DNA of 64,000 nt from Beijerinckiaceae bacterium (GTDB lineage Bacteria > Pseudomonadota > Alphaproteobacteria > Rhizobiales > Beijerinckiaceae): the NCBI GenBank assembly GCA_037446355.1, contig JBBIIT010000003.1:22751-86750 (forward strand), given 5' to 3'. The position numbers and the translations under genes were made by a program. The notes under the pieces were generated by a model. That model saw only the letters and a program-made list of their open reading frames with translations. It was not told where the DNA came from and did not search any database. Within the stretch, counting starts at the first letter, position 1. Each line of letters starts with the position of its first letter. Of the stretch, positions 17,578 through 36,000 are shown in pieces.

Positions 17578-18606
17578 ATGAGCAGTCGCGACTATCTCCG
17601 CGTTAACGCCTACTTGACCACGGAGATGGACGCACGCGCGATCCGCAGCGCGCTCGATCTTGGAGTCATCGACACGCTCGCCGAACTTGGGCCCAGCGCG
17701 ATCGACGCGCTCGCGCGGTCGCATCGAATCCATCCGACGGGACTGAAGCTGCTCGCCCAGATGCTTGCGGCGAATGGGGTGGTCCGCTTCGAGGGCGGGA
17801 GCATGGAATTGACGCCGGCGTTCCTGAGCGCGCTGCGGTTTCGCGATCTCCTGGAGTCCCGAATCGCCTTTGCGGACCTAGTTTGGCCAGACATCCACAC
17901 GCTATTCACGCCGCTATTGAACGACTTGCCGCAATTCATGGCGCGCTCAAAAGTGTTCGACCTGTTTCGCTACGATCGCTGCTTCGATCTGACCCCGGAG
18001 AACATCGAGGCGACGCAGAGCTGGACGAAATTCACGACCTGCCTGACCAAGTACGAGGCGGGGCCCGCGTTGGACGAAGTGGGACTCGACGGCGTCGACG
18101 ATCTCATTGACATGGGCGGCAATACCGGCGAATTCGCGTTTCGCGCCTGCCAGCGCAGATCGACGCTGCAAGCGACCGTGGTCGATCTTCCCGTTGTTTG
18201 CGAACTGGGCCGTCGGCGCCTAGCGGGCAGCGACGAGGCGCGGCGCATCGGCTTCTTCCCGACCGACATGCGCGGCGGCGCATTGCCCGCGCCCGCGGAC
18301 CTCGTCTCCTTCAAGTCGGTGCTGCACGACTGGCCCGACGCCGAAGCGCGCCACTTGTTGACGCGCGCCGCGGATCTGGTGCGTCCGGGCGGGCGGCTGT
18401 TGATCTTCGAGCGGGCGCCGATTGACGTCAGCAAGGGTCGTATTCCCTATGCGATGGCGCCCGACCTGGTATTCCTGCATTTTCTGCGTCCTGCGGACCT
18501 CTACTTGCGGACATTGCGCGAGCTTGGGTTTGCGATCGTCACGCATAAGCGCATGGCGCTCGACATGGACTTTCACCTTATCGTCGCGGCGAGACCGCAG
18601 CGCTAG
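17578..18606 (+). CDS. O-methyltransferase family protein (dimerisation domain plus SAM domain)
   Basis: N-terminal AIRSALDLGVIDTL dimerisation helix-turn-helix; DMGGNTG, VVDLP, FKSVLHDWPD and PGGRLLIFE. Confidence 0.85.
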   Translation: MSSRDYLRVNAYLTTEMDARAIRSALDLGVIDTLAELGPSAIDALARSHRIHPTGLKLLAQMLAANGVVRFEGGSMELTPAFLSALRFRDLLESRIAFADLVWPDIHTLFTPLLNDLPQFMARSKVFDLFRYDRCFDLTPENIEATQSWTKFTTCLTKYEAGPALDEVGLDGVDDLIDMGGNTGEFAFRACQRRSTLQATVVDLPVVCELGRRRLAGSDEARRIGFFPTDMRGGALPAPADLVSFKSVLHDWPDAEARHLLTRAADLVRPGGRLLIFERAPIDVSKGRIPYAMAPDLVFLHFLRPADLYLRTLRELGFAIVTHKRMALDMDFHLIVAARPQR

Positions 18607-18639
18607 CGCGCGCGACGATCTCAATCAGAGGGCTGATCG

Positions 18640-20166
18640 ATGTCCGACTTCCGGGGGCAGGCACAAGCGATCGAGCGGGTCGTGATCGTCGGCGGCGGCA
18701 CGGCCGGATGGATGTCCGCGATCTATCTCAATCGCTTCCTGAAGCCGTTGAAGGTCAAAGTGACTTTGGTTGAGTCGCCGACCGTCGGTTCCATCGGCGT
18801 CGGCGAAGCGACGATTCCCTCGCTGGTTGAATTCGTGCGCACCCTCAATCTCGATGAAAAGGAATTCATGCGCCGCTGTTCGGCCACTTTCAAGCTGGCG
18901 ATCAAGTTCGAAGGTTGGGGCGGCGAAGGCTCGAGCTATTGGCACGCTTTCGGGCCTTGCGGCGGGCAATTAAACGGGCTGGACCTTTTTCATTTCTGGA
19001 ATCGGCGACGGATCGAGACGGCGAGCGAACTCAAATACGCGGACTATTCGTTGCAGGCCCTGCTCTGCGAACAATCGAAAGCGCCTTGGCCGATCGAAGG
19101 CGCTTCGCCAATTTCGCAAATGGGGACTTACGCCTACCATCTCGACGCCTCAGCGCTCGCCGAATATCTGCGCGAACGCGCGACCGCCGAAGGCGTGCAT
19201 CACCTGTTCGGCCATGTCCAGGAGGTCCAATTCGGGGCGCGCGGCGACATAGAGAGCCTTGATATCGGCGGCGACCGAACCTTGCAGGGCGATCTCTTCC
19301 TGGATGCGACGGGGTTCTCGGGACGCCTGATCGAGCAGGAGCTTGGCGATCCCTGGATCGATTGGTCGAAATATCTGCTTTGCGACGGCGCGATCGCGAT
19401 GCCGTTGCCGCGCAGCGCCGAATTCCCGCCTTACACGCTATCGAAGGCGGCGGATTCGGGCTGGATGTGGACGATTCCGCTCAACAATCGGGTGGGAAAT
19501 GGTTACGTCTTTTCCCGTGCGCATATTTCCGAGGACGAAGCGACCGCCGCGCTGATCGCCCGATCGGGTTTGCGCCGGGAGCGCGCCGCCGATCCGCGCT
19601 CACTGAAGATCAGGGTCGGGCGCCGCTCAAAATTCTGGGTGCGAAATTGCGTGTCGGTCGGCTTGGCGTCCGGATTCGTCGAACCGCTGGAGTCGACGGG
19701 AATTCACTTCATTTTCAAGACTGCGAAGCAGCTCGTCAAGTTTTGGCCCGACAGCCCGACGCCCGACGCGCTTCGTGACGCCTTCAACGAAGAAATGTCC
19801 GAGCTTTACGACGAGGTTCGTGACTTTATTGTTTTGCACTATTGGCTGGCGCGGCGCGAGGGACCGTTCTGGCGCGACGCGCGAAACGTTCCCCTTAGCT
19901 CCAGCCTCAAGGACCGCATCGCCCGGTTCGACGAGACAGGCCGGATCGAATCCAACCACAAAGCGTTGTTCGCCGACGCCAGTCACTTTTTCATTTATTC
20001 GGGCAACGGCCGCCAACCCCGGCGCATGATCGTCGAAGCGGAATTGGCCAATCGCAACGAAGTGTGGCACGTGCTCGATCGTATCCGCGCCGACAATAGA
20101 GAGTTCGCGCATCGGATGCCCGAGCATAAGGTCTATCTCGAACGGCTGCATCGGACGCCCGTTTGA
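18640..20166 (+). CDS. Flavin-dependent halogenase, tryptophan halogenase family
   Basis: GGGTAG (18691), IGVGEATIP, ATFKLAIKF (catalytic Lys), WMWTIP (WxWxIP at 19462) and GFVEPLESTG. Confidence 0.9.
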   Translation: MSDFRGQAQAIERVVIVGGGTAGWMSAIYLNRFLKPLKVKVTLVESPTVGSIGVGEATIPSLVEFVRTLNLDEKEFMRRCSATFKLAIKFEGWGGEGSSYWHAFGPCGGQLNGLDLFHFWNRRRIETASELKYADYSLQALLCEQSKAPWPIEGASPISQMGTYAYHLDASALAEYLRERATAEGVHHLFGHVQEVQFGARGDIESLDIGGDRTLQGDLFLDATGFSGRLIEQELGDPWIDWSKYLLCDGAIAMPLPRSAEFPPYTLSKAADSGWMWTIPLNNRVGNGYVFSRAHISEDEATAALIARSGLRRERAADPRSLKIRVGRRSKFWVRNCVSVGLASGFVEPLESTGIHFIFKTAKQLVKFWPDSPTPDALRDAFNEEMSELYDEVRDFIVLHYWLARREGPFWRDARNVPLSSSLKDRIARFDETGRIESNHKALFADASHFFIYSGNGRQPRRMIVEAELANRNEVWHVLDRIRADNREFAHRMPEHKVYLERLHRTPV

Positions 20167-20957
20167 TGTCCGGCGCCGATTTGATCGAACTGGTGAAGGC
20201 GCTCAGGGCGCCCTACGGCTTGGAGCGATCCGTCAAGATCGAGTCCGGCGTGTTGTTCGACGACCGTTTTCTGATCAGCGTCCATCGCGATGCGTTGGGC
20301 GTCGATCCTCTCGGAAAGCTCGGGGCGATCGTCGCCGCTCAGGGCGCCCCGCGAGCGGTTGTGCGCGCTTTGGCGCAAGCGCTGCAAGGCGCCGATGTCA
20401 TTCATTTCGGACACGAGACGGACGCCCTCGGCGCTGTCCGCAAGATTTATTTCGAATATGCGGCGGCGGCTCGGCGATCGATGGCGCAAGATCGGCCGGC
20501 GCTGGTTCATTTCGCCTACAAGTGGAAGCCCGGCCGCGAACATGGATTCGCGCAAACGCGATATACTTGGGCGCCGGCGCCGACGCGGCGGGAACTTGAG
20601 GGTCGCGTGAACGCCTTGCTGCCGGTCGGATCGGCGCCGAGGGGCCGCAAAACGGCGCTCGCTTTGCTGGAACTGGCTTGCCGCGCGGCGGAAGCTCGCG
20701 AAATATTGCTGATGGAGGTCGACGAGCCCGGCAATGCCAGGCGTTCTCTCGATATCAACCTGTATGAGGCCGAGCTGCGTCTGCGCGATGTCGGAGATCT
20801 CGTCGCGACGATAGCGAAAGATTTCGCAATTCCCGGAGAACGACGCCAGGCGGTGTTCGCCGATCGCGGCGATCTCCTGCTCGGCCATCTCTCGGCCGGC
20901 GTCGGGCGTGATGGACAGGAATTCGTGACACTATATTATGGAATTGAAGCGCATTGA
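20166..20957 (+). CDS. Hypothetical protein, possible cyanobactin F-family (PagF/LynF-like) prenyltransferase homologue
   Basis: GLERSVKIESGVLFDDRFL resembles the PagF segment I recall as SLEASCKIESDKLIASRFL; C-terminal VTLYY; five beta-hairpin-like segments separated by helices. TGATG coupling to the halogenase. Confidence 0.5.
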   Translation: MSGADLIELVKALRAPYGLERSVKIESGVLFDDRFLISVHRDALGVDPLGKLGAIVAAQGAPRAVVRALAQALQGADVIHFGHETDALGAVRKIYFEYAAAARRSMAQDRPALVHFAYKWKPGREHGFAQTRYTWAPAPTRRELEGRVNALLPVGSAPRGRKTALALLELACRAAEAREILLMEVDEPGNARRSLDINLYEAELRLRDVGDLVATIAKDFAIPGERRQAVFADRGDLLLGHLSAGVGRDGQEFVTLYYGIEAH

Positions 20958-20967
20958 CGAGGCCGCG

Positions 20968-21840
20968 ATGAACATTGAGTCGAGGCCGCTGGAGCGAACC
21001 GGCCCGCACGAGAAGTTCGCGGACTACTGTCTTTGGGACTATCCGCCGCCCTCGCCGCCGGCGGGAAAGCTGCGCTCGTCGAACTTGCTTTGGAGCGCCA
21101 TCGCCAGCATTGGAGGCGCGCCGCATCTGGTGGCCGCTTGCGAAGCCATCCGTGCCGGATTGGGGCCGTTTCGGACGGTCTACGGCGTCAAGCAGAAAGA
21201 TGGGCTGACCAGCTTCGAGTTCTATTTCTACGATTACGAACGACTCGAACGCCGCGTTTCGATTTCGCGCGTGCTCGAGATCCTGAAGCCGTGGGTCGCC
21301 TGCTCTTTGCCGCCGCTGGAAGGGCGACCATACTTCATGTTCTCGATTGATCTCGACGAAGCGACGTCGAGCGGACGTAAACCGCTCGATACGATTAATA
21401 TGTATATTGGCAATCCCGGCAGCTCAGTGTCGTCGGGCATTTGCTATGAGCAATCGGCCGCCGGCCTGCGTCTAGCGAATTTCTATTTCTTTTTCGATCG
21501 CCGGCGAGAAATGGACGACATCGTCGCCAAAGTCGCCTGTTCCGCGCACCATGATTTGCGCACGTTCGATCCCTCCTCGGTGCTGCGGCCGGAGTTGTTG
21601 AATTGCGAGGTCGTCGTCGTCGCCAACAAGAAGTTCAACGACGGCGTCTATTTCTCGCGATTGCCGATCGATCCCCTTATCGGCTTCCTGAAACGGGAAG
21701 CATTCCACCCCGATATCATCGCTTTCGCGGAGCGGCATCGCGACGAACTCGATCATATGCTATATGACGTCGGCGTCGACTATATTGTCGAGGGCCGATC
21801 CGTCAAAGTCACTAAGAGCGCCTTCTACGGCCTCCTCTAG
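20968..21840 (+). CDS. Hypothetical protein with alternating helices and aromatic beta-hairpins
   Basis: Clean ORF with host-like codon use inside the operon; ACGAGG RBS before ATG 20968 (alternative start 20938). No family recognised. Confidence 0.75.
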   Translation: MNIESRPLERTGPHEKFADYCLWDYPPPSPPAGKLRSSNLLWSAIASIGGAPHLVAACEAIRAGLGPFRTVYGVKQKDGLTSFEFYFYDYERLERRVSISRVLEILKPWVACSLPPLEGRPYFMFSIDLDEATSSGRKPLDTINMYIGNPGSSVSSGICYEQSAAGLRLANFYFFFDRRREMDDIVAKVACSAHHDLRTFDPSSVLRPELLNCEVVVVANKKFNDGVYFSRLPIDPLIGFLKREAFHPDIIAFAERHRDELDHMLYDVGVDYIVEGRSVKVTKSAFYGLL

Positions 21841-21867
21841 GCCGGGCGCAAACCATCGGAGTCATGC

Positions 21868-22836
21868 TTGTCGATCGCGGAGCGGACTTACGCATCGGAC
21901 TGGGCGGCGCTGCACCGATTCGATAATCGCGATTACGTCTCGATGACGATGGAGTTCCGCTGCAATTTGAAATGCGCTCACTGCATGATCGAAGGCACGA
22001 TGGACCGGTTGGAGCCGGAATCCTCGGACCGATTCGAAGAATTGCTGGCACAGAACCGAAGCGGTCGCCGCTGGAAGGGCCTCATCCTGACCGGGTCCGA
22101 AATTACTTTGCGCAAGGACTTGCCTGATCTGGCTCGCCGAGCGCGCGGCGCGGGCTTCGAACACGTCCGTATTCAGACCCACGGAATGCACCTGGCGCAG
22201 GCGGCCTATTGCGACACCCTCATTTCGGCGGGAGTCGACGAATATTTCGTCAGCGTGGCCGGATCCGACGCCGCCACGCACGACGCGATCACCACCGTAG
22301 CCGGCTCGTTCGAGAAAACCATGCGCGGAATGGATATTCTGGACGGTCGGGAGGGCGTCGCCCTTATGACCAATTCGGTCGTTACGCGCCGCAGCTATCG
22401 CCTGCTGCCTCAAATCGTCGAGCGGCTCGCGCATTTGCGGCGCCTAGTCCAAATGGAGTTCTGGGTCTATTGGCCGATGAGCGAGACGGACGAGAAAGAC
22501 CTCGTCGCCGCACATGCCGAGATCGCGCCATATCTACGCGAGGCCATCGTCAGGGCGCGGGCGCTGGGCCGGGGCGTAGAGGTCAAGAACTTTCCCGAAT
22601 GCCTTTTGGGGAGTGAACGCTCGGCGCTGGTGAATACGCAACCGCAACTTTTCATCGACCCGGCGTTTTGGCCCGAGTTCATGCGAAACGGGTTTTATCA
22701 ATGTGTTTACAGGGATCAGTGTGCATCGACCGAGTGTCTCGGTCTGAGCACGGCTTACATCTCGAAATTCGGCTACGACGAGAAAATCTTGCGTCCCTTG
22801 TCTCCTCCGGGAACCGGCTCGGAAATTCCGCGTTGA
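21868..22836 (+). CDS. Radical SAM protein with C-terminal Cys cluster (possible twitch/SPASM-like auxiliary cluster)
   Basis: CNLKCAHC at 21961-21984, ILTGSEIT, RIQTHG, KNFPECLL and QCVYRDQCASTECLGL; GGAG RBS with TTG start. Confidence 0.85.
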   Translation: MSIAERTYASDWAALHRFDNRDYVSMTMEFRCNLKCAHCMIEGTMDRLEPESSDRFEELLAQNRSGRRWKGLILTGSEITLRKDLPDLARRARGAGFEHVRIQTHGMHLAQAAYCDTLISAGVDEYFVSVAGSDAATHDAITTVAGSFEKTMRGMDILDGREGVALMTNSVVTRRSYRLLPQIVERLAHLRRLVQMEFWVYWPMSETDEKDLVAAHAEIAPYLREAIVRARALGRGVEVKNFPECLLGSERSALVNTQPQLFIDPAFWPEFMRNGFYQCVYRDQCASTECLGLSTAYISKFGYDEKILRPLSPPGTGSEIPR

Positions 22837-23055
22837 AGGTTTTTGAAAAGCGACCCCCTGCGGCTGTTGAAATATAGCGCGGCGAATCGACGTGAGTCGT
22901 CTTTATTCAAACTGCTGAATTAAGAAGACAATGGGTCAAGCGCGCCGGGAGTTATTATAGGACTGCGATAAGATTAGCTACAAATTGCTTTTCCATATCC
23001 GTGTTGCTTGTGCCGATGATCGCCGCGAAATTTCGATCCGATCAAATTCTGTCAA

Positions 23056-23070
23056 GGCAAATAAATTGCT
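23056..23070 (+). promoter_or_regulatory. Candidate sigma-54 (-24/-12) promoter upstream of sapC and the giant gene
   Basis: GGCAAATAAATTGCT has exact GG-N10-GC spacing with TTGC, inside an unusually AT-rich 380 bp intergenic region. Confidence 0.5.
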
Positions 23071-23217
23071 TATTCACCCCTTGAAGCTGTAAGCGGTCTC
23101 CGATAGCTTTGTCTAACAATTGTGATTGAGGGTTGATTTGGGGTTGCGCGGCGGCGTCGCCGTTGGGGTCACGCCGAAGCGAACGCGACCGGATTCTTAG
23201 GGCGGGAACAAGTGTAA

Positions 23218-23982
23218 ATGACAAAACAACTGCTGATTTACGAGCGCGCGACCGGGGTGAATGCGCGCGATCATAGAGACGTTTCGATAAAGACGAGCAA
23301 CGATTTCAGCTTCGCGAGGGACGTGAACTCGGTGCCGCTGATGGCGGTCGAATTCGAACTTGCGAGTTCGGAATATGCGATCGTGTTTTCGGGCGAATCG
23401 TCAGCGGTCATGCCCGCTGCGTTGCTCGGAATTCGCGACAACGAGAATCTATATGTCGACGAGCATGGGGTCTGGAACGCGAAATATGTTCCGGCCTTCG
23501 TTCGTCGCTACCCCTTTGTCTTCTCGTCGGCGGACGGAGCGACATTCACGCTTTGTCTGGACGAGGAGTTCCATGGCGTGAACCGTCGCGGTCTCGGCGA
23601 ACGGCTGTTCGACGCCGAGGGGCAGCGAACGCAATATCTGCAAAGCGTTCTGAACTTTCTCCAGGCGTATCAGGCTCAGTTCGAGGCGACCCGGGCGTTC
23701 ACCGCGCGATTGGTCGAACTCGATCTTCTCGAAGCGATGCAGGCTCAGTTCACACTGCGATCCGGCCAGAAAATCACGCTTGGCGGTTTCACGGCGGTCA
23801 GTCGGACCCGCCTCCGCGCGCTCTCGGGCGACGCCCTCGCGCGTCTAGCCGCCAACGGCGATCTCGATCTGATCTACGCGCACTTGCATTCGCTGCGCAA
23901 TTTCACGCCGACAGCGGAACGTGTGCTGCGGGTGCTCGAACCCACCGCCGCGACATCGTCGCCTGCGTTGTCGGACGCCTGA
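23218..23982 (+). CDS. sapC: SapC family protein
   Basis: FSFARDVNSVPLMAVEF, PAALLGIRDNENLYV, YVPAFVRRYPFVF and LDLIYAHLHSL. Confidence 0.85.
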   Translation: MTKQLLIYERATGVNARDHRDVSIKTSNDFSFARDVNSVPLMAVEFELASSEYAIVFSGESSAVMPAALLGIRDNENLYVDEHGVWNAKYVPAFVRRYPFVFSSADGATFTLCLDEEFHGVNRRGLGERLFDAEGQRTQYLQSVLNFLQAYQAQFEATRAFTARLVELDLLEAMQAQFTLRSGQKITLGGFTAVSRTRLRALSGDALARLAANGDLDLIYAHLHSLRNFTPTAERVLRVLEPTAATSSPALSDA

Positions 23983-24097: not shown

Positions 24098-27000
24098 ATG
24101 GCTTTTCCGTTTCAGTCCGAGGGTTTGTTTGGACGCCCCAAGCGACCGACTCCAAGGAAGCCACGCAGCCGCTGGACGCCTCTGCACTGGTTCTGGCGCG
24201 ATGGACCGCGCGCCGCCCGCGCGCGCGCGAGTCGCGGCCGCCTAGCTTTCACGCCTCTCGAACCGCGTTTGCTGCTCAACGCGGACGTGCTCGCCATCAA
24301 TCTGACGCACGATCTAGGCGCGCCGCCGGTCGACCACTCGTTGATCGTTCAGTTGGTGCACGAGACCGAAAAGGTCAACAACCAAGCCGTCAACGTCCAG
24401 CGTGTCCAGATCGTCGACCAGAACAACGGCGCAGTGCTCGCCTTTGGCGATCTTGCCGCGATTTCCGCGGTTTCCATACACGACTCCGGCGCTGGCGCGG
24501 ATACGCTGACGATTGACGCGAATTCGTTCAAAGGTCTGGCGGCGCCGAAAATCTCGTTCGACGGCGGTTCGGGCCAAAGCCACATCGTCTTCGACAACTC
24601 GAGTCAAACGGATTGGACGCTGACCGGCGCCAATGCGGGCGTCGTCAGCGGCGACGGCGTGAGCCTGGCGTTCCAGGGCGCCGCCAATTTGACGGGCGGC
24701 GTCAACAACGCCGACATCCTGACCATAGACAAGGGCGGGACGTTGTCGGGGATCTTCGACGGCGGCGCGGGCGGCCACAATTCGCTCGTATTCGACAATG
24801 GGCCGCACACGACAGTCGCTTCGTCGGTCGGCCCGACCGGGCGGACGATCACGCTCGACGGTCAGTCACTCACTTATCTGAACGTCGATTCGACCAACGT
24901 TGGCGATCCCGCACTGCTCGACCTCAGCGCGAGCACGAATCTGAATCTCGAAGTGGCGCAGAGCGGCGCCAATCTGCATGTTTTCGGCGTCAATGGGTCC
25001 ACCTATGACATGACGCTGGCCCCCACGGCGGGTCAGGCGTTCGAGCTCAAGCTCGGTTCCGGCGATACGCTCAAGGTCGATGCGATCGATTTCGGCTCCA
25101 TCGCCTCAGGGACCGCGTTCAACATCGACGGCGCGGGCGCATCGATCGAGTTCGCGGGAAATTTGACCGACAATTCGGGCGTATCCGCTTCGGTCAGCGC
25201 TTCCGACACCAGCTCCATTACGACCGATATCGCCAGCGAAAGCCTGGCCCCTTCGGCCCAGAACGCTTCGATCACCCTCGATCAGGGCTACACGATCAGC
25301 GCCAGCACGATTTCGCTGAGCGCAAATTCGTCGGCGAGCGAGACGATTTCGAACATCAATTTGACGTCGCATCTCGTCACGAGCGCGACGATCAGCACGA
25401 CCAACAGCGCCCAGATCACTATCAACGGAACGTTGAGTTCAACGGGCGCCGTGTCTCTCGTCTCCAATGTCAATGTCAACGATTCCATAGCGAACAGCAG
25501 CGGCACGCTGATCCACTCGACGACGATCACGGCCAAAAACACTTCGTCGGTGACATTCGGATCCGCCTCCGTCGTGTCAGCGGGCACGCTCGATGCGGAA
25601 GCCAACACCAACGTGTCGGCGTCGATCAGCGTCCAGAGCATTGGCGCCGGGGTCATCCCCGGCTTCGTCCCCGCCTCGCTCCTCGGCGTCGCCGTTCAAG
25701 TCTCCATCGGCATCACCAATCAAACCACCGTCACGTTGGCCCCTGGCGGCGCCATCACGGTCGGTTCAGGGTCGATTTCGACCGCCAAACCGGTTGCAGC
25801 CTATATCGCCGCCACCGATGTCACCAACCTTTCGACCACGCTCTCTCTCGACGATCCCGCGTCGTTGCCGGTCGTCGGCAATGTCCTGGTGTTCAGCGCC
25901 CTCGATAGCGCGGACACGCTTTCGCGTACGACTGCGGTCGACGTCGGAAATCTGAGCGCCACCGCCGCGCCGTTATCGTCGGCGACTGCGGCGCTTTCGT
26001 CGTCCGGCGGCGATTTCTCGCTCGACACCACCAACAGCGGCGCGGTCGTGAATAATGAAACGTCCACGGGTCTGGGAACCGTGGAGATCAATGCGCCCGC
26101 GGACTCTGCGACAGTCGAAGTCTCCGGCGTCAATGTGAACGCCGGCGGTCTATCGGAGACGTCTCTCAGCAACACCAGCTACTCCGAGCTTGGCCATCTG
26201 GCGGCCATTTCGGTCGGCGGCCAAACGGAGGCGATCCTTCAATATGACGGCGTCACCGTCGGCGCCGACGGACTGGTCGTCTCCACCGAAGACGATTCCT
26301 CGATGACCGCGTCGTCGGTAGCGCCGAGTTTCGATCCGAACACGACGACCGAATCGGGCTCGTCGACCTCGGGCACGCAGATCGCGGTCAATCGAACCAC
26401 TTCCGTGATCTCCTACAATAAGGACACGGTCGCGATCATCCTGGGTTCCACGGTCAATTCGGGCGGCTCCGTTCGGGTTCAGGCCGTCGACAATGTCTCC
26501 ATTTCTTCGGACGCCGTGATGGCGGCGAACGCGACCTCGAGCGGCAGCGCGTCGGTCTCGGGAGGCGGCGCGCTTGCGGCCAATCTAATCAACGGGGCTA
26601 TCTCCGCCTCGATCGAGAGTTCCTCGGTCACGACGACTGGGACCGGCGACGTTCGGGTCTTGGCAGGCGATTCATCGACGATCGCGTCACGCGCGGAGAC
26701 GAGCGCGTCCGCGACCGGAACCTCGACCGCCGCGGGCGTCGCGGGAACCGTATCGCTTAACGCAGTCGGCTGGACCTTCGGGACCGGCGCCGCGGACCTG
26801 CTCGGCGCGGCTCTCGGCACAGTGCTCGGCACAAACAGTTTCTGGACCGACAACGCTCCGACCGACATCACCGCGGCGGGCAACAAGGCGAACGTTGTCG
26901 CCAAGATCACCGATTCGACCGTCGCCGCCGCCGGCGCTCTGCTCGTTCAGGCCGTGGCCGCGAGCGCGATCAACTCCACGATCACCAATGTTTCGCAGGC

Positions 27001-30000
27001 CACGGCTACCGCGAGCGGCAACGGCGTCGCCGTCGCGGTCGGCGGCGTCGCAGCGTCCAATCGGGTCAGTCGCGCCGCCACCGCGTTTCTCAAGAACGTA
27101 ACTCCGACATCCATCGGCGGCTCAATAGCAAGCGGCGCGATCTCGGTGTCCGCGCAGAACAATTCCTCGGTCACGTCGAATTCTTCGCTGGTTACCTCGG
27201 CGGTGGCGACGACCGCAGGCGCCAAGACCACATACGTATCCACGGACAAGCCAGGCAACGCCAGCAGTTCGACGACAGCGTTGCAGCCGACGACTACGCT
27301 CAATTTCGGGGACACCGTTCTTTACAAGGCGACTTATTCCACCGCAAATCTGTTCGGAACGAGCGTTCCGAAGAAGGAGACCGTCAATCCCGGGGACAGC
27401 GTCTTCATTGCGCCAGGCTATCCCAGCGCCAAAGGCGTGGCCGATCAAGTCTATGTGTATATCGGGTCGAAACCGGAAACCATCGATCTGGAACAAGAGG
27501 ACTACACCGTCACCACGAACTGGAAGCCGGTGTCCGTCGTCAATGGCGCGGTTTACAAGTTCATGGGGCCCGCCAACACCAACGTCGCCCTTTCGACCGG
27601 GGATCTGTTTGACAGTACCGGCAAAGCGATTTCGACGATCACGCCCGATTACTACGACCTCGGTTATTGGCAGAAAGTTCCAAAAGCCGAGCTGACACCG
27701 AGCACCGATGACAAAGGCCACACAACCAGCGGCTCGGCGAGTGGCGCGGCCGTCGGCGGTATCGTCGTACTCAATGAAGTTCATGGCGGCGCCTACGCGA
27801 TCGTGACAAATTCGACCGTCACCGGCGGCTCGCTCGCCGTTTCGGCGATCGACAACGAAACGATCAACGCGACGATCGACGCGACCGCCACCGCGAGCGG
27901 CGGCTCGTCTTTCAATAAGACCGGCGGCGGCAGCTCGGGAACCACGCTCGCCATTAACGGCTCGGTCGCGATCAACGAAATTCTCGGCAATGCCGACGCG
28001 CATGTTCTCGACAGCGCGGTTACGACGAATTCCGGCGACGACAGCATCACGGCGACCAACGAGTCCGACATCACGGCTTCGACCGCGAGCGCGGTGTCGG
28101 CAAGTTCCTCGGGCGGAACCACCGTGGCCGTCGGCGTGATCATGGCCGACAATACGATCGGTGCGGCGTTCCAGAACTTGCTGGCCTCGACGGTCGATAC
28201 GATCGCCGGCGGCGGCGTACTGGGGTCGCAGGCGCCGACCGTCACCACGGCCTATCTCCAGGACTCGTCGGTCTCCGCTACCCACGGCGGGCTGAACGTC
28301 GCCGCGAGTTCGACGGAAAACGTCAACGCGACAGTGACCAACGCGACGACCGCTGACGTGGAGCCGGCCGACGGCAGCAAGAGTTTCGGCGCCGCCGCGG
28401 TGTTCACCGACAACCAAATTCTGACGGGCGTCACCGCCTACATCGATCTGGCCGCGGCCGCGGTCGGCGCGCAGGTGGCGGTGGACGGGGCGCTGGCCGT
28501 CGGGGCGACGGACAACGCGACGATCACCACCGCGTCGACGATGACCGCGCTCGGAACTCAGGCCGCGAGCGGTCCCGCGAACGACTATGCCACCCTCGCC
28601 AAGAGCAGCTACAAGTTCACCAATCTTTCGGGCTCACAGACGCTTAATTTTGGCGATCAGGTCGCTGTCCAGCAGGCCGACGGAACGATCATCGTCTATC
28701 GCTATATGGGCGTCACCGCGACGGGCGTCGATCTTGGCAGCCTCACCACCGATACGACGGCCAAGCACTACACGGACCTTGAATACTGGAAGCCGCTTTC
28801 CGCCGATCAACTCAAGCAGGAGGCTGAAGCCAAGTCCGCCAATCCGACCACGGGAACCGCGCCAGGCGAGAGCGTCAGCCACGACAGCAACAATACCGAG
28901 TTCGGCTCCGCCAGTCTTTATGTGCTGTTCGATTACAACAACGTGGCAAGTTCGACGACCGCCTACATCAACAAGGCGACGGTGACAGGCGGTTCCGTGG
29001 CGGTGAACGCCAGCGACACGGCCACGATTTCAGCGACCGACGGCAGCGTGGTGACCACGGGCGCGGGCGGTTTTGGCGCCGGCGGCGTCGTCGCGACCAA
29101 CCATGTCACGGGTTCGTCGACGGCCTATATCGAAGCCTCCACTGTTGCGGCGACGGCGGGCGCGGTGGCGCTCGACGCCGAGAACACCTCGACCATCACC
29201 GCGACCGAAACGACCGCGCTCACCGCGGACGGCAGCGCCGTCACGGTGGAAGCCGCCTTCAACGTCATCGGATGGAGCGGCGACAATTTCGGCTCGCTCG
29301 CGCTGTCGACTTTGATCGGAACCGACAGCCTTCTCGGCACGGCGTCCCCCGACAACACGCAAGCCTATATCGACGGCGCTTCGGGCGTGACCGCTTCGGG
29401 CGACGTCACGGTCGTCGCCAACGGCAAGGCGACGATCAACTCCACCGTGGGCGACCAAGCCGCGGCGGGCAATGGCGACGCGACGTCCACGCTCAACGTC
29501 GGCGGCGTGCTGGCGACCAACAAGATCAATACGGCGACGCAGGCCTATATCGGCACGGCGCCGAGCGCGCTGGCGACGGCGACGACGCTCGATACGTCCT
29601 CGGCCACGGCGACCGGCGGAACCGTAAAGGTCGCTGCGACGGACAGCCCTACGCTCACCGCGACGTCCACCATCACCCTCAGTGCGACAGCCTCCACCGG
29701 CGGCGTCGCCGCCGCGCTGTCGGGCGATTACAAATATACCGACAAGTCGGGCACGCAGACCGTCAAGAAGGACGATCAGGTCTACACTTACGACTCGGCC
29801 ACGAGTACGGCGACGGTTTACACTTACGTCGGCAATTCAAGCACCCCGAGCGCGGGCGATTCCGTCGACCTGGGCGCGACAAGTTATACCAGCTCCCTGT
29901 GGAAGAAGTCGGGCTCCGGCGCGCCCGCGGCCGACGCCTCGAAGGCGGAAGCCAAGGCGGTCGGCGCGGTCTTCGTTCTCAACGACGTGCGCGGACTTGC

Positions 30001-33000
30001 GGACGCGACGATCGCGGTGGCGCCGGGCGCCGCCAGCGGTAGCGGCCTCGTCACCGGCGGGACTGGGATCAGCGTCACCGCCAACGAGGCGGCGTCGATC
30101 ACCGCCGACACCGAGAGCAACCTGACTTCAACGGGCGGCGGCAATGGGACCGCCACCACCACCGCCAATCAGACGACGCAACCGGCGGAGCCGACCGGCA
30201 ACCCGAGCACCACCACCCAGCCCGGGGGCGGTCTGGCGCTCGGCGGCGCGATCGACACTAATCTCGTGCTCGGGAACGCGCAGGCCTCGATCCAAGGCGC
30301 CACGCTGAGCGCGGGCGCGAGCGGAGTCATCGTCAACGCGCAGGACACCGCGCAACTCGACGCCACCACTCTCGTAGCTTCTTCCACTGGCGGCGCGGGC
30401 TCCCAGGGCGCCTACGATCTCTCGATCGCGTTCAACTCAATCGGTTACGCGCCCGAGAACTTCTTGTTCAACGCGGTCGATGCTCTGGTCGGCGGCGCCT
30501 ATCTGGCGTCCGCGACGCCCGACAACGCGACCGCCTATCTCAAGGGCGTGACCGTCACCAGTGACTCGGGCGCGCTCAGCGTGACCGCGCAGAGTAACGA
30601 ACAGGTCAACGCGACAGTCAGCAACGCCGCGGGCGCGACGACATCGGCCCTTTCCGAAGCCTCAAGCACCGGCTTTGGCGGAGTATTCGCGTCAAACAAA
30701 GTCGATGGCAGCGCGATCGCCTATATCGACGAAACCGGCGTCAGCAAGCCGATCGCGGCGACCGGCGCCCTCGTTGTATCGGCGACCGACGGCTCCGGCG
30801 TCTTTTCGAACGTCAAGCTGGTCTCCAGCGCCATCGTCACCCCGGACGGCGGCACGGGCGCGCTCGACGCCAAGCTGAACGGCTCGAATGGCGCCTCGTT
30901 CAACACCGCGCCGACCGGCGGCGGCGTCAATAACAACCAGAACCTCGTGTTCGGCGCGACGGTGCTGGTCGGGGCGGGTTACGACACGCCGGACTATACA
31001 ATCGGCGCGCCCGGCGTCGGCACGGTCACGCTGAAGACCGGCGACGTCGTCGCCGACGGAGCGGTGTTCTATCGCTACACCGGCACGGGCAAGTCCGAGA
31101 ATCTCGCCACCGATCCAGGCCTCGCGACCGATCCCGATTTTTCGGTGATCGGCGGGCAGGAAGGCGCGACCTACCAATACATGGGACCGCCGGCCTCGAC
31201 CGGCTACACCGGCAAGACCTACGATCTCAACAACACCGACTACACCGATCTTGCGTTCTGGAAGCTTGTGCCGCTGACGAACGTCGTGCCCAGCGGATTG
31301 AAGACCCCGGCCCCCGGCTCGACGACGACCGCCGCGACCGGCGGCGCCGAGAAGGACGGAACGGCCTCCAACGATTCCAGCGGCAACGCCAAGCCGTCGC
31401 AGGCGACGGCGGTCGGCGGAATCCTCGTCTTGAACGACGTTCGTTCCGCGACTCAGGCCTACATCCTGAACGCGACCATCAGCGCTGATTCCGCGACGGT
31501 GAGCGCGCTCGATCAGGCGACGATCACCGCGACCAACGACAGCACTGTCGTGGCGCAGACCAGCACGCTCGGAAGCGGGTCCAATCTCGCCCTCAACGGC
31601 ATCATCGCGACAAATCTGATCCAGAACTCCGCCGATGCGCATGTCGAGACCAGCAGTCTGACGGCGAGCAACCCGGCGACGCCCGTGGCGGGAAGCCCCA
31701 ATGCTCCGGTAGAGTTGACGATCAACGCGGAGAACGACGCCAGCATCAACGCGATCAACGACGCGCAGACTTCCGGCGGCGGCAAGGCGGCGGGCATCGT
31801 GCTCGCGTTCAACACCATCGGTTATCAGTCGAGCAATTTCCTGTTCAACGCGGTCGACGGGCTGCTGGGTAGCAACATCCTCGCGTTCGGCAAGAGCCCG
31901 CTTTCCAACGTGACGGCCTATGCCGACGCCTCGACCCTCGATGCGACCCATGGCGGCGTCTCGGTCACCGCGAGCCTGACCGCCAAGATCAATGCGTTGA
32001 CGACCAATCTGACATCGTCGCTCGGCGCCGCGCTCGAGAACGCCAGCAGCGTCGCGGTCGGCGGCATCATCGCCACCAACGAGACGAATACATCCGCCAA
32101 CGCCTACATTAGCGGGGGCTCGGCGACGGCGGGCGGCGATATCACGATCAACGGGTCGGATCGTTCGCGCATTATCGCCAACGACCAGCAGGTCGTCTCG
32201 TCGACGCTCCAGGATACGGGAACATCGAACAGCAATGTGCTCAGCAATTACGCGAGCCAGATCAAGCAGGGCTACCAGTACACCGCGCAGTCCGGGGTGC
32301 AGTCGATCGCCCCCGGCACGATCGTCTACGACAATCACAACCAGAAATATTATGTATTCCTGGGGTCGGTGACCAACACGACGCAGGCGCCGGAATCCGT
32401 CGATCTCGGGACCACCGACTACACGAACTCCAACCCGGCCGCGCACGGAAATGTGCCGCTGTGGGCCGAGTTCACCAATTCGGTGCTGCTCACCGCGCTG
32501 CCCGATTTCACGACCGTCAAACAGGCGGGCGATCAAGGCACTGGCTCCTCCTCGACCGCCGTCGGCGCGATCTTCGTGCTGAACGCGATCACCAGCGTGG
32601 TCAACGCCTACGAGGACAGCGCCGTTCTGACGAGTGGTTCGGGCGCAGCCGCCGGGGCTTTCGGCGGTCAGATCGCGATCGGGGCATCCAATTCCAGCGC
32701 CGTCAACGCGACCAATTCGAGCACGACGACCGCCTCGAATGGCAAGTCGGGCCCGACGACCACTTCGCCCGGTTCAGGGTTGGCGATCAACGGCATCATC
32801 GCGACCAACAATATCCTCGGCGGCACGGTCGCTTATGCGCACAAGGGATCCGTGACGGCGAGCGGCACGGGCGGATCGGTCAATGTCTCGGCGACCTCCA
32901 ACGCCGCGATCGACGCCGAGAACACAGCCTCCACTGACGCCAAGACCGATTCTGTCGGGGTCGTGCTCGCGTTCAACACCATCGGCATTGCGATGCCAGT

Positions 33001-36000
33001 GGCGGGCTTCCTCGAGAACACGGTCGACGCGTTGTTCGGAACCAGCCTCGCCGGCGAGCAGCCCGACCTGGTTCACGCCTATATCGACAGCGTCCCTGTC
33101 GTGGCCTCCGCGGGGGTCGCCGTTCAGTCGAACGAGACTTCGAGCATAACGGCGAAGATCAACAACGCCGAGACGGGCCTGTTCACCTCGGGGGTCAGCG
33201 TCGGCGCGACCGTCACGCTCAACCGCATCGCGAACGATGTCGGCGCGTGGATCACCGGCGGCAGCATTCACGCCAGCAAGGGCGACATCGACGTCGGGTC
33301 GCAGGACCAGGCTACGATCGCGTCGACGGTGCTGACGCCCATCGTCAAGCTCGCGGCGAGTTTCAGCAAAAGTTCGACAAACACGAATGCCACGACTGTC
33401 GGCGTCAGCATCGCGCGCAACATCATCGAAAACACGGTGTCCGCGGCAGCGGGCACAGCGGCCGGCGGCACGACCCTCACGGCCGACGACGGCAACATAG
33501 CGATCACCGCCAATCAGATGGCCTCGATCACAGCGACTTCCGCCTCCGCGGCGGTGAGCCTCGGCGTCACCACGAGCGGCAATTCGGGCGCCTTCGCAGG
33601 CGGCGGCGCCGTCGCCATAAATACGATACTCGGCGGCGTCACCGCGTCCTCCTTGAATTCCGCCCTCACCGCGACGACTGTCGATCCGAGCACGGGCGCG
33701 ATAACGGTTTCCGCGACCTATGGCGGGAGCATAACGTCGATCGTCGCCGCCTTGGCCGTCGCGCTCAGCGTTAGCGACGGCGCGGCCGATGCGGTCGCGA
33801 TCGGCGCCGCGGTTTCGCTTAATCTGATTGGTTGGCGCGGCACCGTTGCGGACGAAACGCAAGATTCTCATAACCCGATCACGCTCTCGGCCGACGTCAA
33901 TGGCGGCTCGCTGACATCTGGCGCCGCCGCCACCGTCGCCTCAACTTCCAGCGCCACCATTCAGGCCACGACTCTGGCCGCGGCGGTCGCGATCAGCGCC
34001 TCGACCAGCGGCGGCTCCAACAGTGGGCAGGAAAGCACCGCCGGCAATAGCCCGACCGACGCCAACACCGAAGGCAAGGGCTCGGTCACGAACGCTTCCG
34101 GCGGCAAGTCGGCGACGGATCTTGGCAGCGCCAACGGCACGACGGTCAACGAAGGTTCCGATGTCGCGGGCGGCGCCGAAACCAATCAGGGCGAAAAGGG
34201 CGGCGCCGCGGCGGGCCAGGCGGGGAACACTGCCAGTTCTGAGTCCGGCGCGAGCAAGGGCAGTTCCACCAGCCTCGCGACGGGCCTGGGCGCCGGCGGT
34301 GGCATTCTGGTGGGATTGGGAGGCGTCGTTTCTTCCGCCAAATCTGGCGGTTCCGCGCCCGGGCCGACCTTCACGACGACCGACGCGACTTTGCCGACCG
34401 ACGTGCAGTCCGTGAGCAACGGCAACACGGTCCAGCTATCTTCCAGTTACGATACCGCCAAGTTCAGCGTCGGCACGGATACCTCGCCGAAGAATGGCAG
34501 CGGCAACAGCACTGGCGGACAAGGCAGCAACACCAATTCGACCGTGAATCCCGGCGACGTGGTCGACGACAGCGGAACTTTATACCGCTACGTCGGTCCG
34601 ACAGCGTTGACGGGCGTCGATTTCGAAGTGGGCGCGACGCCGCCTGATTTCACTTCGACGACGAATGGCGTTGCGAATTGGGTCAAAATCGGCGGCACGA
34701 CCGGCCATACCTATCAATATATTGGCGCCACGAACGGCTCGCTCGACCTCAACAATCAGGATTACACCGACGCGACGCTCTGGAGCGACATCACCGGCGG
34801 CAACAGCGCGGGCGGCTCCGGCACGACCAGCGCGCCTTCGGGTGCGACGCCCTCACTCGGCTCGGGCCTCGGATTCCTCAGCGGCGGCTCGGGCGCCACC
34901 AGCACGCCGCAGACGCCGGCCGGAGCGACCAATCCCTCGTCGGAATCCAACCCGTCGGAACCGGCGACCAGCACGACCTCGACCGAAGATCAATCGACCC
35001 AAAGCAAGGAGAGCAAGAACTCCTCCTCGCTGAGCTTCACGGGCGCCGGCGTCTATACCGAGAACAAGATCGCCACGACGATTTCGTCGACGATCGAGAA
35101 CACGACCAAGATCACAACGGGCTCGGGCGCCAAAGCCGGTCTCAGCGTCACCGCGGCGGATAGTGCGCACATCACCTCGCTCGATGGAGCGGCGGCGATC
35201 TCCGCCAACTTCTCATCGAGTTCCAACAGCAACACGATTTCGATTGGCATCGGCATCGCGCGCAACACGATTCAGGACTCCGTCACCGCCAGCGTCACCA
35301 GCGCCGGGTCGATCGTCGCTCCGAATGCCCCGATCACGATTTCGGCGACGCAGAGCGCCGACATCGAGGCGACTTCGGTCGCCGCTTCGCTGGCGATCAG
35401 CGCCAGCACGAAGGACGCGACCTCCGTCGCCGGCGGCGGCTCGCTCGCGGACAATCTGATCGGCGTCAAGACCGACGCGAGCCTCGACAGCACCGCGGTC
35501 GGCGCCGCCGGAAATTCCACCGGGGCGCTCGACGTCACCGCAAGCGACACGTCGACGATCCACGCCATCGTCGCGGCCGCGTCGGCGGCGGTTTCATTCT
35601 CGAGCCAGAATGCGAACGCCGTCGGCATCGGCGCTTCGCTCGCACACAACCGCATCGGCGACGGCGCTGATACGGGTGGCGGCGAAGTCCTGGCCTCGAT
35701 CACGAATTCGCCCGTCCACAGCGGCGCGATCGATGTCAACGCGACTTCGCACCAGTCGATCGAAGCGCAGGTCATCGGCGCCGCGGTGGCGGTCTCCGGC
35801 GCCAGCGACGAGGCGACGGGTTTCACAGGCGCCGGCGCGTTCGCTTTCAACGAAATCGCCGTCACCGTCGGCGCCAAGATCGACGGCGGCGCCGCGAACA
35901 CGACCAACGTCGTCGATTCGGCGGGCGTGACGGTCGAGGCCTACGACACCTCCTCGATCAACGCGACCGTGTTCGCGGGCTCGGTCGCGGGCGCGTTCTC

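Follow-up and report, generated by a model that had tools for sequence, protein, structure and literature searches.

What are the small, aromatic-rich units that interrupt the shaft of a giant bacterial exoprotein, and what are they for? The question is raised by a 64,000-nucleotide stretch of DNA from a Beijerinckiaceae bacterium (GenBank assembly GCA_037446355.1, contig JBBIIT010000003.1, positions 22,751 to 86,750 of the forward strand; hereafter the window, in whose numbering nucleotide positions are given unless another record is named), which encodes such a protein. A sequence-only reading of the window had picked out nine copies of an aromatic insert and proposed that they were small beta domains, loosely akin to the CBM5/12 glycan binders, that project from an aromatic-poor shaft and are the most plausible targets of a halogenase, a prenyltransferase and an O-methyltransferase encoded nearby. 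We find that the nine units are copies of a widespread family of predicted beta domains, present in several bacterial phyla and unnamed in the curated libraries. As to their role, we put at about one half the probability that the module is an accessory, self-folding knob, furnishing the fibre with multivalent binding sites for a surface ligand.

The LEPR-XLL / LktA-type giant exoproteins, to which the host protein belongs, are among the largest bacterial proteins, and to our knowledge almost nothing is known of what they do. The module is sharply conserved, optional and countable; about 1,000 protein clusters from different phyla contain it, and neither Pfam, NCBIfam nor the Protein Data Bank (PDB) names it. 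With its definition annotators gain a new domain model and experimenters a small unit that can be expressed and screened for folding, Ca2+ and ligands, in giants that are otherwise intractable.

Nine units in the shaft of one giant protein

The host gene is a single intact open reading frame (ORF), as read from the ORF list:

24098-57796, + strand: giant exoprotein host gene, 11,232 residues

The protein begins with an N-terminal leader (M-A-F-P-F ... L-E-P-R-L-L-L), continues as an LktA_tand_53 shaft and ends in RTX repeats. It is a LEPR-XLL / LktA_tand_53 giant by both NCBIfam models: NF012209 (LEPR-XLL) scores 18.3 bits on the N-terminus, against a cut-off of 17, and NF012206 (LktA_tand_53) matches at E 1.6e-37 within residues 1-4000 and at E 1.2e-133 within residues 4001-6000. 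Neither model covers the aromatic module; they describe the leader and the 53-residue shaft repeat respectively. Pfam recognises only the RTX repeats (HemolysinCabind) near the C-terminus. From about residue 780 to about 3100 the chain is organised in super-repeats of roughly 370-445 residues, in each of which some 300 residues of shaft are followed by a module and a linker; beyond residue 3600 another type of repeat takes over, without modules.

Exactly nine units of the form Y-x-[YF]-x-G ... D-L ... D-[YF] ... W lie at six sites between residues 1065 and 3568, as the sequence-only reading had counted them. The regular expression [YF]-x-[YF]-x-G finds nine matches between residues 1119 and 3539, one per unit, each followed by D-[LF], [DS]-[YF] and Trp (unit 4a excepted); the five loose matches elsewhere in the protein all lack the D-L / D-Y / W tail. 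The full motif, seen seven times, occurred on average 0.004 times, and at most once, in 500 shuffles of the protein. The best BLASTP match of each unit is another unit, and a hidden Markov model (HMM) built from the nine finds these nine places only in the whole 3.6-Mb genome (E 4e-23 to 6e-9). No repeat among the units was found at the DNA level, and their protein identity to one another is 24-37%, from which it follows that the copies are old and that selection has acted at the protein level to keep them.

All nine are present, but they are not all alike. A full unit of about 60 residues consists of an N-type sub-repeat (Y-x-[YF]-T-x-x-S-G-x-x-x-L-x-x-G-D-x-V-x-V) followed by a C-type sub-repeat (G-x-V-Y-x-Y-x-G ... 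[VIL]-[DN]-L-x-x-x-[DN]-[YF]-x-[DN]-x-x-x-W-x-x-[VIL]). Six units are full length, while 1b, 4b and 6b are C-terminal half-units, and each double site (1, 4 and 6) has in addition an upstream N-type half-unit, giving the order N'-N-C-C. One unit, 4a, ends in Phe and lacks the Trp, a detail that had been read correctly from the outset. The units and half-units are:

27290-27358, + strand: site 1, extra N-type half-unit (residues 1065-1087, containing L-N-F-G-D-T-V-L; weak HMM match at residues 1059-1084)
27359-27541, + strand: unit 1a, full (residues 1088-1148; HMM domain E 2.7e-18)
27530-27688, + strand: unit 1b, C-type half-unit (residues 1145-1197; HMM E 4.7e-14, model positions 22-61 only)
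28610-28807, + strand: unit 2, full, the copy modelled with AlphaFold2 (AF2) (residues 1505-1570; HMM E 9e-25)
29729-29920, + strand: unit 3, full (residues 1878-1941; HMM E 2.6e-23)
30938-31009, + strand: site 4, extra N-type half-unit (residues 2281-2304; read by eye, aligned with site 1)
31010-31153, + strand: unit 4a, without the terminal Trp, ending D-P-D-F-S-V-I-G (residues 2305-2352; HMM E 5.1e-11, model positions 8-52)
31130-31279, + strand: unit 4b, C-type half-unit (residues 2345-2394; HMM E 4.2e-17)
32273-32482, + strand: unit 5, full (residues 2726-2795; HMM E 1.7e-24)
34403-34477, + strand: site 6, extra N-type half-unit (residues 3436-3460; read by eye)
34520-34699, + strand: unit 6a (residues 3475-3534; HMM E 3.4e-16)
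34679-34801, + strand: unit 6b, C-type half-unit (residues 3528-3568; HMM E 1.2e-12)

The protein as a whole is rich in Ala, Gly, Thr, Ser and Val, with 0.5% Trp and 2.3% Tyr. Within residues 400-5800 Trp makes up 1.62% of the modules against 0.14% of the shaft, and Tyr 7.7% against 1.4%. The picture of an aromatic-poor shaft thus holds for this part, in which the modules are 6- to 12-fold enriched in Trp and Tyr, but not for the distal part (residues 6000-11232), which is not aromatic-poor; of the whole protein's 54 Trp and 254 Tyr residues the modules hold only 8 and 38.

A widespread and optional domain family

A profile of 17 units was searched against 1.84 billion proteins, taken as cluster representatives. 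It matched 968 representatives at E<=1e-3, among them 407 that reach E<=1e-10 and 89 that reach E<=1e-30; a single protein holds as many as 21 matching stretches. The nine units of the window belong to this family, matching the profile significantly (E 1e-11 to 1e-25) with the conserved Gly, Tyr-x-Tyr, Asp-Leu, Asp-Tyr and Trp. The consensus of 1,025 instances reads Y-x-[YF]-T-[TS]-x-S-G-x-x-x-L-x-x-G-D-x-V-x-[VL] ... G-x-V-Y-x-Y-x-G ... [VIL]-[DN]-L-x-x-[QE]-[DN]-[YF]-x-[DN]-x-x-x-W-x-x-[VIL]; in these instances Trp is conserved at 99%, positions 36, 38 and 53 are aromatic in 98-99%, Gly40 and Leu48 are conserved at 93% and Val20 at 92%.

The carriers are mostly LEPR-XLL / LktA_tand_53 giants of Alpha- and Gammaproteobacteria and of Planctomycetota, and LktA_tand_53 repeats were also present in seven of eight short or dense-array matches. 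Source names among the top 150 matches include a gammaproteobacterial "DUF4347 domain-containing protein", a Pirellulaceae hypothetical protein and a Litorivicinus "LEPR-XLL domain-containing protein". In the same 150, the start-to-start spacing of copies peaks at 30-70 residues (tandem copies) and at 300-400 residues (one per shaft segment); the dense tandem arrays are exemplified by 14 units within 974 residues. Searched with the two half-profiles separately, these proteins gave the patterns NC (200), C (111), CC (39), NCC (38), NCNC (20), NNCC (18) and NNNCCC (14). The halves multiply independently, and the true repeat elements are therefore about 25-30 residues long, the "unit" being a composite.

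Among a sample of 301 genomes of the order, one further genome has the module, that of Methylobacterium brachythecii DSM 24105. Its giant is an orthologous open frame of 13,628 residues, in which eight units occupy similar positions, and the genes upstream of it come in the same order as in the window:

NZ_JACIDN010000007.1, about 285,200-326,100, - strand: M. brachythecii DSM 24105 giant, orthologue of the window giant

The module is absent from four other LktA_tand_53 giants of the same order (genomes G120, G261, G294 and G101; open frames of 5,399-9,292 residues), and is thus an optional accessory of these proteins.

Predicted fold and relation to known domains

With unit 2 alone and an alignment of 122 family members, AF2 gave a model with a predicted local distance difference test (pLDDT) score of 77 (five models in agreement, 75-77; core about 88). 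It has five to six strands, at residues 1507-1508, 1513-1516, 1521-1525, 1531-1536, 1541-1545 and 1564-1567, with the conserved Asp/Asn positions on a loop of lower confidence. This model bears out the description of the units as discrete small beta domains, and by it the module is predicted to be a small autonomous beta domain. A 371-residue super-repeat modelled with nine aligned sequences (pLDDT 64) showed long paired shaft strands and a poorly defined module, at whose borders it places, at low confidence, two helices (one of them short) and some 25 residues of disordered linker. Four of the six strands are shared by the two models (1513-1516, 1521-1525, 1531-1536 and 1564-1567); in the larger one 1541-1545 shifts to 1549-1552 and the first short strand is absent. 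In this low-confidence model the modules lie between shaft segments, with the short helix and a low-complexity linker at their borders, which is in keeping with the earlier reading.

No library that we searched names the family. Pfam finds nothing on the first 8,000 residues of the host protein, on the units themselves (E<=10), on ten dense-array relatives or on the 122 members; NCBIfam gives only sub-threshold matches to the 122, of which the one recurrent model is NF040662 (a host-specificity protein of phage tails, TipJ-family; 8 of 122, at E>=0.015), and PHROGs gives nothing consistent. The 100 protein-atlas clusters nearest to a six-unit relative have no Pfam family in common, and in literature on LEPR-XLL proteins, DUF4347 giants and SapC-halogenase pairs we found no description of the module. 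Repeated small beta modules are known as accessories of giant fibrous exoproteins in general; this particular family is undescribed in the libraries and literature searched.

The likeness to CBM5/12 (chitin-binding type 3) that had been remarked on is one of motif only. Both are small extracellular beta modules, often present in several copies, in which a G-D-x-V strand and an aromatic strand precede a C-terminal Trp; a protein-language-model search returned phage CBM5/12 clusters, at a score (0.75) below the reliability line, and Foldseek matches at E > 0.1 include a T4-type capsid protein and tail fibres. However, the module is about 60 residues long against 44 for CBM5/12, which lacks both the Y-x-Y-x-G strand and the D-L ... 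D-Y-x-D loop. The Pfam model PF02839 (gathering score 26.2 bits) has no match at E<=10 on six unit-containing segments, none at E<=1 among the 122 members, and none at E<=1e-6 in the six frames of the genome, whereas it matches in nine other genomes of the sample. PF02839 also supplied a comparison set of 17 domains from other genomes, the 14 without a stop codon being aligned; set against these by hhalign, the module alignment gave a probability of 1.7% over seven columns that comprise only G-D-x-V. The top 50 Foldseek matches of the pLDDT-77 model in the PDB contain no CBM5/12 structure, in a test that is hard for small domains. The loose kinship thus fails by HMM, by profile alignment and by structure comparison, and that the module is a divergent CBM5/12 by true homology is very improbable.

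Two other resemblances are worth recording. The G-D-x-V-x-V ... G-x-V-Y-x-Y-x-G part of the module aligns to the first half of CAP-Gly and to the KOW motif of L24, families that share an SH3-like barrel with Tudor domains, and weak summed KOW4_SPT5 matches occur in dense-array proteins; but the SH3-like alignments have E values of 0.14 or worse over about 30 residues only, and no SH3-like structure is found among the Foldseek matches of the module. Among predicted viral structures (BFVD) the best Foldseek match of the module is a siphovirus tail protein, A0A8S5RTT7_1 (E 7e-3, probability 1.00, template-modelling score 0.48; rmsd 1.8 over 55 columns, 27% identity), followed at E>0.05 by tail-fibre, baseplate and T4-type capsid proteins. 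The small beta domains of phage tails and tail fibres, like the module, are knobs on fibrous proteins, and theirs is the best structural resemblance found, although the scores are below significance. The weak NF040662 matches point to the same kind of protein. We regard the resemblance as a lead rather than a match. A tblastn search with a consensus-like family member against 50,697 phage records found nothing. Foldseek with the 371-residue super-repeat model returned uninformative beta-solenoid noise.

Possible roles of the module

The role that we favour, at even odds, is that of an accessory knob. One unit, or one N'-N-C-C composite, comes after each shaft segment of about 300 residues between residues 1065 and 3568. 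To judge by the pattern of conservation, the invariant Tyr, Tyr, Tyr/Phe (position 53) and Trp (position 59) would form the module's own hydrophobic core together with Leu14, Val20, Val/Leu22 and Leu48, and such a core would be of normal size for 60 residues. In the Y-x-Y strand (V-Y-x-Y-[LVIM]-G) both Tyr lie on one face and the alternate face is Arg, Glu, Gln or Lys in 81% of copies; the Tyr face should therefore point inward. Since the module is optional, its copy number ranges from 1 to 21 and it can form dense arrays, an accessory binding knob is the most likely of the roles considered, rather than an obligatory structure or a dedicated enzyme substrate; a structural joint ranks after it, and an acceptor for tailoring enzymes after that.

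Several results weigh against the knob, or at least fit another role as well. The binding role is putative, and no lectin, CBM or solved structure matches the module significantly: a profile search of PDB sequences gave nothing under E 0.036 (with partial matches to tectonin, CAP-Gly and ribosomal protein L24 KOW), and the best Foldseek match of the module model in the PDB has an E of 0.8. Three conserved Asp/Asn positions may, at a guess, bind Ca2+, as RTX-type exoproteins commonly do. Between orthologues, modules and shaft are equally conserved (34-44% identity in both), and stronger purifying selection on the modules is not seen; this equal divergence does not discriminate among the knob, joint and tailoring readings. 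Lastly, strict placement between shaft segments would suit a structural joint too. As a joint, the unit would end one beta shaft segment and start the next, as a folding nucleus or a Ca2+-rigidified hinge without a ligand. It does always stand between segments of about 300 residues, in keeping with the family-wide spacing peak at 300-400 residues, a short helix and a linker flank it in the AF2 super-repeat model, and its invariant residues resemble a core with, possibly, a metal site. Yet related LktA_tand_53 giants do entirely without the unit, as does the same shaft between residues 3600 and 5800, and arrays as dense as 14 units in 974 residues are hard to explain as joints; we consider this role unlikely.

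The third role depends on the genes directly upstream of the giant, which Pfam identifies as follows:

17578-23982, + strand: gene set directly upstream of the giant, comprising O-methyltransferase, Trp-halogenase family, prenyltransferase-like (264 residues), hypothetical, radical SAM and SapC genes

The halogenase, the prenyltransferase-like enzyme and the O-methyltransferase might modify Tyr and Trp of the modules in the cytoplasm before export, the modules then serving as docking or acceptor sites at which a secreted protein of 11,000 residues is halogenated, prenylated and O-methylated. This would amount to tailoring, in the style of ribosomally synthesized and post-translationally modified peptides (RiPPs), of a giant fibre, and would explain the tie of the prenyltransferase-like gene to module-bearing giants in two proteobacterial classes. 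The gene set stands directly upstream in M. brachythecii as here; among the 301 genomes of the order, the two that have the module are also the two that have the prenyltransferase-like gene. The four module-less giants lack that gene, and two of their genomes (G120 and G294) carry the PqqD-M50 export gene. In a scan for prenyltransferase-like loci with one genome per species, which gave 34 loci, all 29 alphaproteobacterial ones that could be evaluated (those whose flank covers more than about 1,100 residues of the giant that follows) adjoin a module-bearing giant, and so does the gammaproteobacterial locus of Billgrantia pellis (30/30). The enrichment of Tyr and Trp in the modules over the surrounding shaft points the same way. 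But the 30 loci represent about two independent lineages, and this one-way association therefore carries little statistical weight. In the other direction it breaks down: no PF04820 (Trp-halogenase family) match is found in two module-bearing genomes, G511 (11 units, 89% complete) and G817 (14 units), and no prenyltransferase-like match in G511, that gene not having been sought in G817; four more module-bearing giants lack these genes in the 8-10 kb upstream and, in the two loci that have one, in the downstream stretch shown. Of these four loci two have SapC and one the full export set. The aromatic columns are the same whether or not the gene set is at hand: in every column the aromatic frequencies of 134 instances from gene-set-linked giants and of 164 from other LEPR giants agree to within 0.25, the absence of the gene set having been checked in only 4 of the 18 comparison proteins. 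Moreover, 85% of the protein's Trp and Tyr lies outside the modules, and the invariant aromatics resemble residues of a core, so that modifying them would break the fold. A RiPP-like system could show itself by a motif found only with its tailoring enzymes, by enzymes found only beside motif-bearing substrates and by residues specific to the enzyme-linked copies; of these the module shows the second (the 29 loci and B. pellis, with the low weight just given) and neither the first (G511, G817 and the four further loci) nor the third. The claim that the modules are the most plausible targets of these enzymes is thus unsupported: there is no specific evidence that the neighbouring tailoring genes act on the module, and we think the idea improbable. 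Should the giant be a substrate of these enzymes, the modules would be only one of several candidate targets, and no obvious first choice; the conserved aromatic N-terminus M-A-[FY]-P-F-x-S-x-G of giants in the gene-set clade is an equally good one.

That N-terminal motif (24098-24140 in the window, residues 1-14) is conserved in the giants that adjoin the prenyltransferase-like set (loci L045-L076) and absent from the other LEPR-type module-bearing giants inspected; it may be a site at which the enzymes encoded nearby recognise or modify the giant. An alternative target of the enzymes would be a precursor peptide, but the gap separating radical SAM from SapC contains no convincing small ORF for one.

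The gene neighbourhood

Farther upstream lie, in this order, GAF-HlyD, PqqD-M50 and SecA-like ATPase genes, a pair of B12 radical SAM genes on the opposite strand, and an HlyD gene, after which comes the gene set headed by the O-methyltransferase. The giant, matching both LEPR-XLL and LktA_tand_53 models, thus adjoins GAF-HlyD, PqqD-M50, SecA-like and HlyD genes, an export locus of the "secondary SecA_DEAD" type described by Kamneva et al. 2015 (PMC4452313), a paper in which giants and module both go unmentioned. In the 80 kb of M. brachythecii sequence compared, the pair of B12 radical SAM genes has no match. A PF13759 oxygenase gene lies downstream of the window giant.

The gammaproteobacterial locus is the most distant of those with a prenyltransferase-like gene:

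Scaffold1_1, 641853-662593: Billgrantia pellis locus (L078)

Here the prenyltransferase-like gene (29% identity) is directly downstream of a giant of 8,719 residues with one module, and is followed by GAF-HlyD, PqqD-M50, SecA-like and HlyD genes; the 20 kb stretch has no halogenase, methyltransferase, radical SAM or SapC gene.

The last gene before the window giant is that for SapC:

23218-23982, + strand: SapC gene, within the gene set upstream of the giant

In unrelated metagenomic loci SapC also stands directly 5' of module-bearing giants (8026-8790 in L079 and 8269-9132 in L080), without a halogenase, methyltransferase or prenyltransferase-like gene. Because it adjoins giants in loci without the tailoring genes, SapC seems to be tied to the giant or its export and not to those genes. 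In M. brachythecii an opposite-strand ORF of 343 residues stands between the radical SAM and SapC genes; judged by eye it may be an AraC-type regulator.

The shaft of the window giant has a second recurring aromatic motif, [FL]-N-x-[IV]-G-[WY], at about one copy per super-repeat, the best copies continuing as N-F-L-F-N-A-V-D-x-L-x-G:

26756-26845, + strand: second shaft motif, residue 887
29258-29347, + strand: second shaft motif, residue 1721
30431-30520, + strand: second shaft motif, residue 2112
31808-31897, + strand: second shaft motif, residue 2571
33818-33907, + strand: second shaft motif, residue 3241

It supplies several of the few Trp residues outside the modules. A degenerate copy at residues 1353-1370 (D-N-T-I-G-A, the aromatic lost) is modelled by AF2 as an amphipathic helix.

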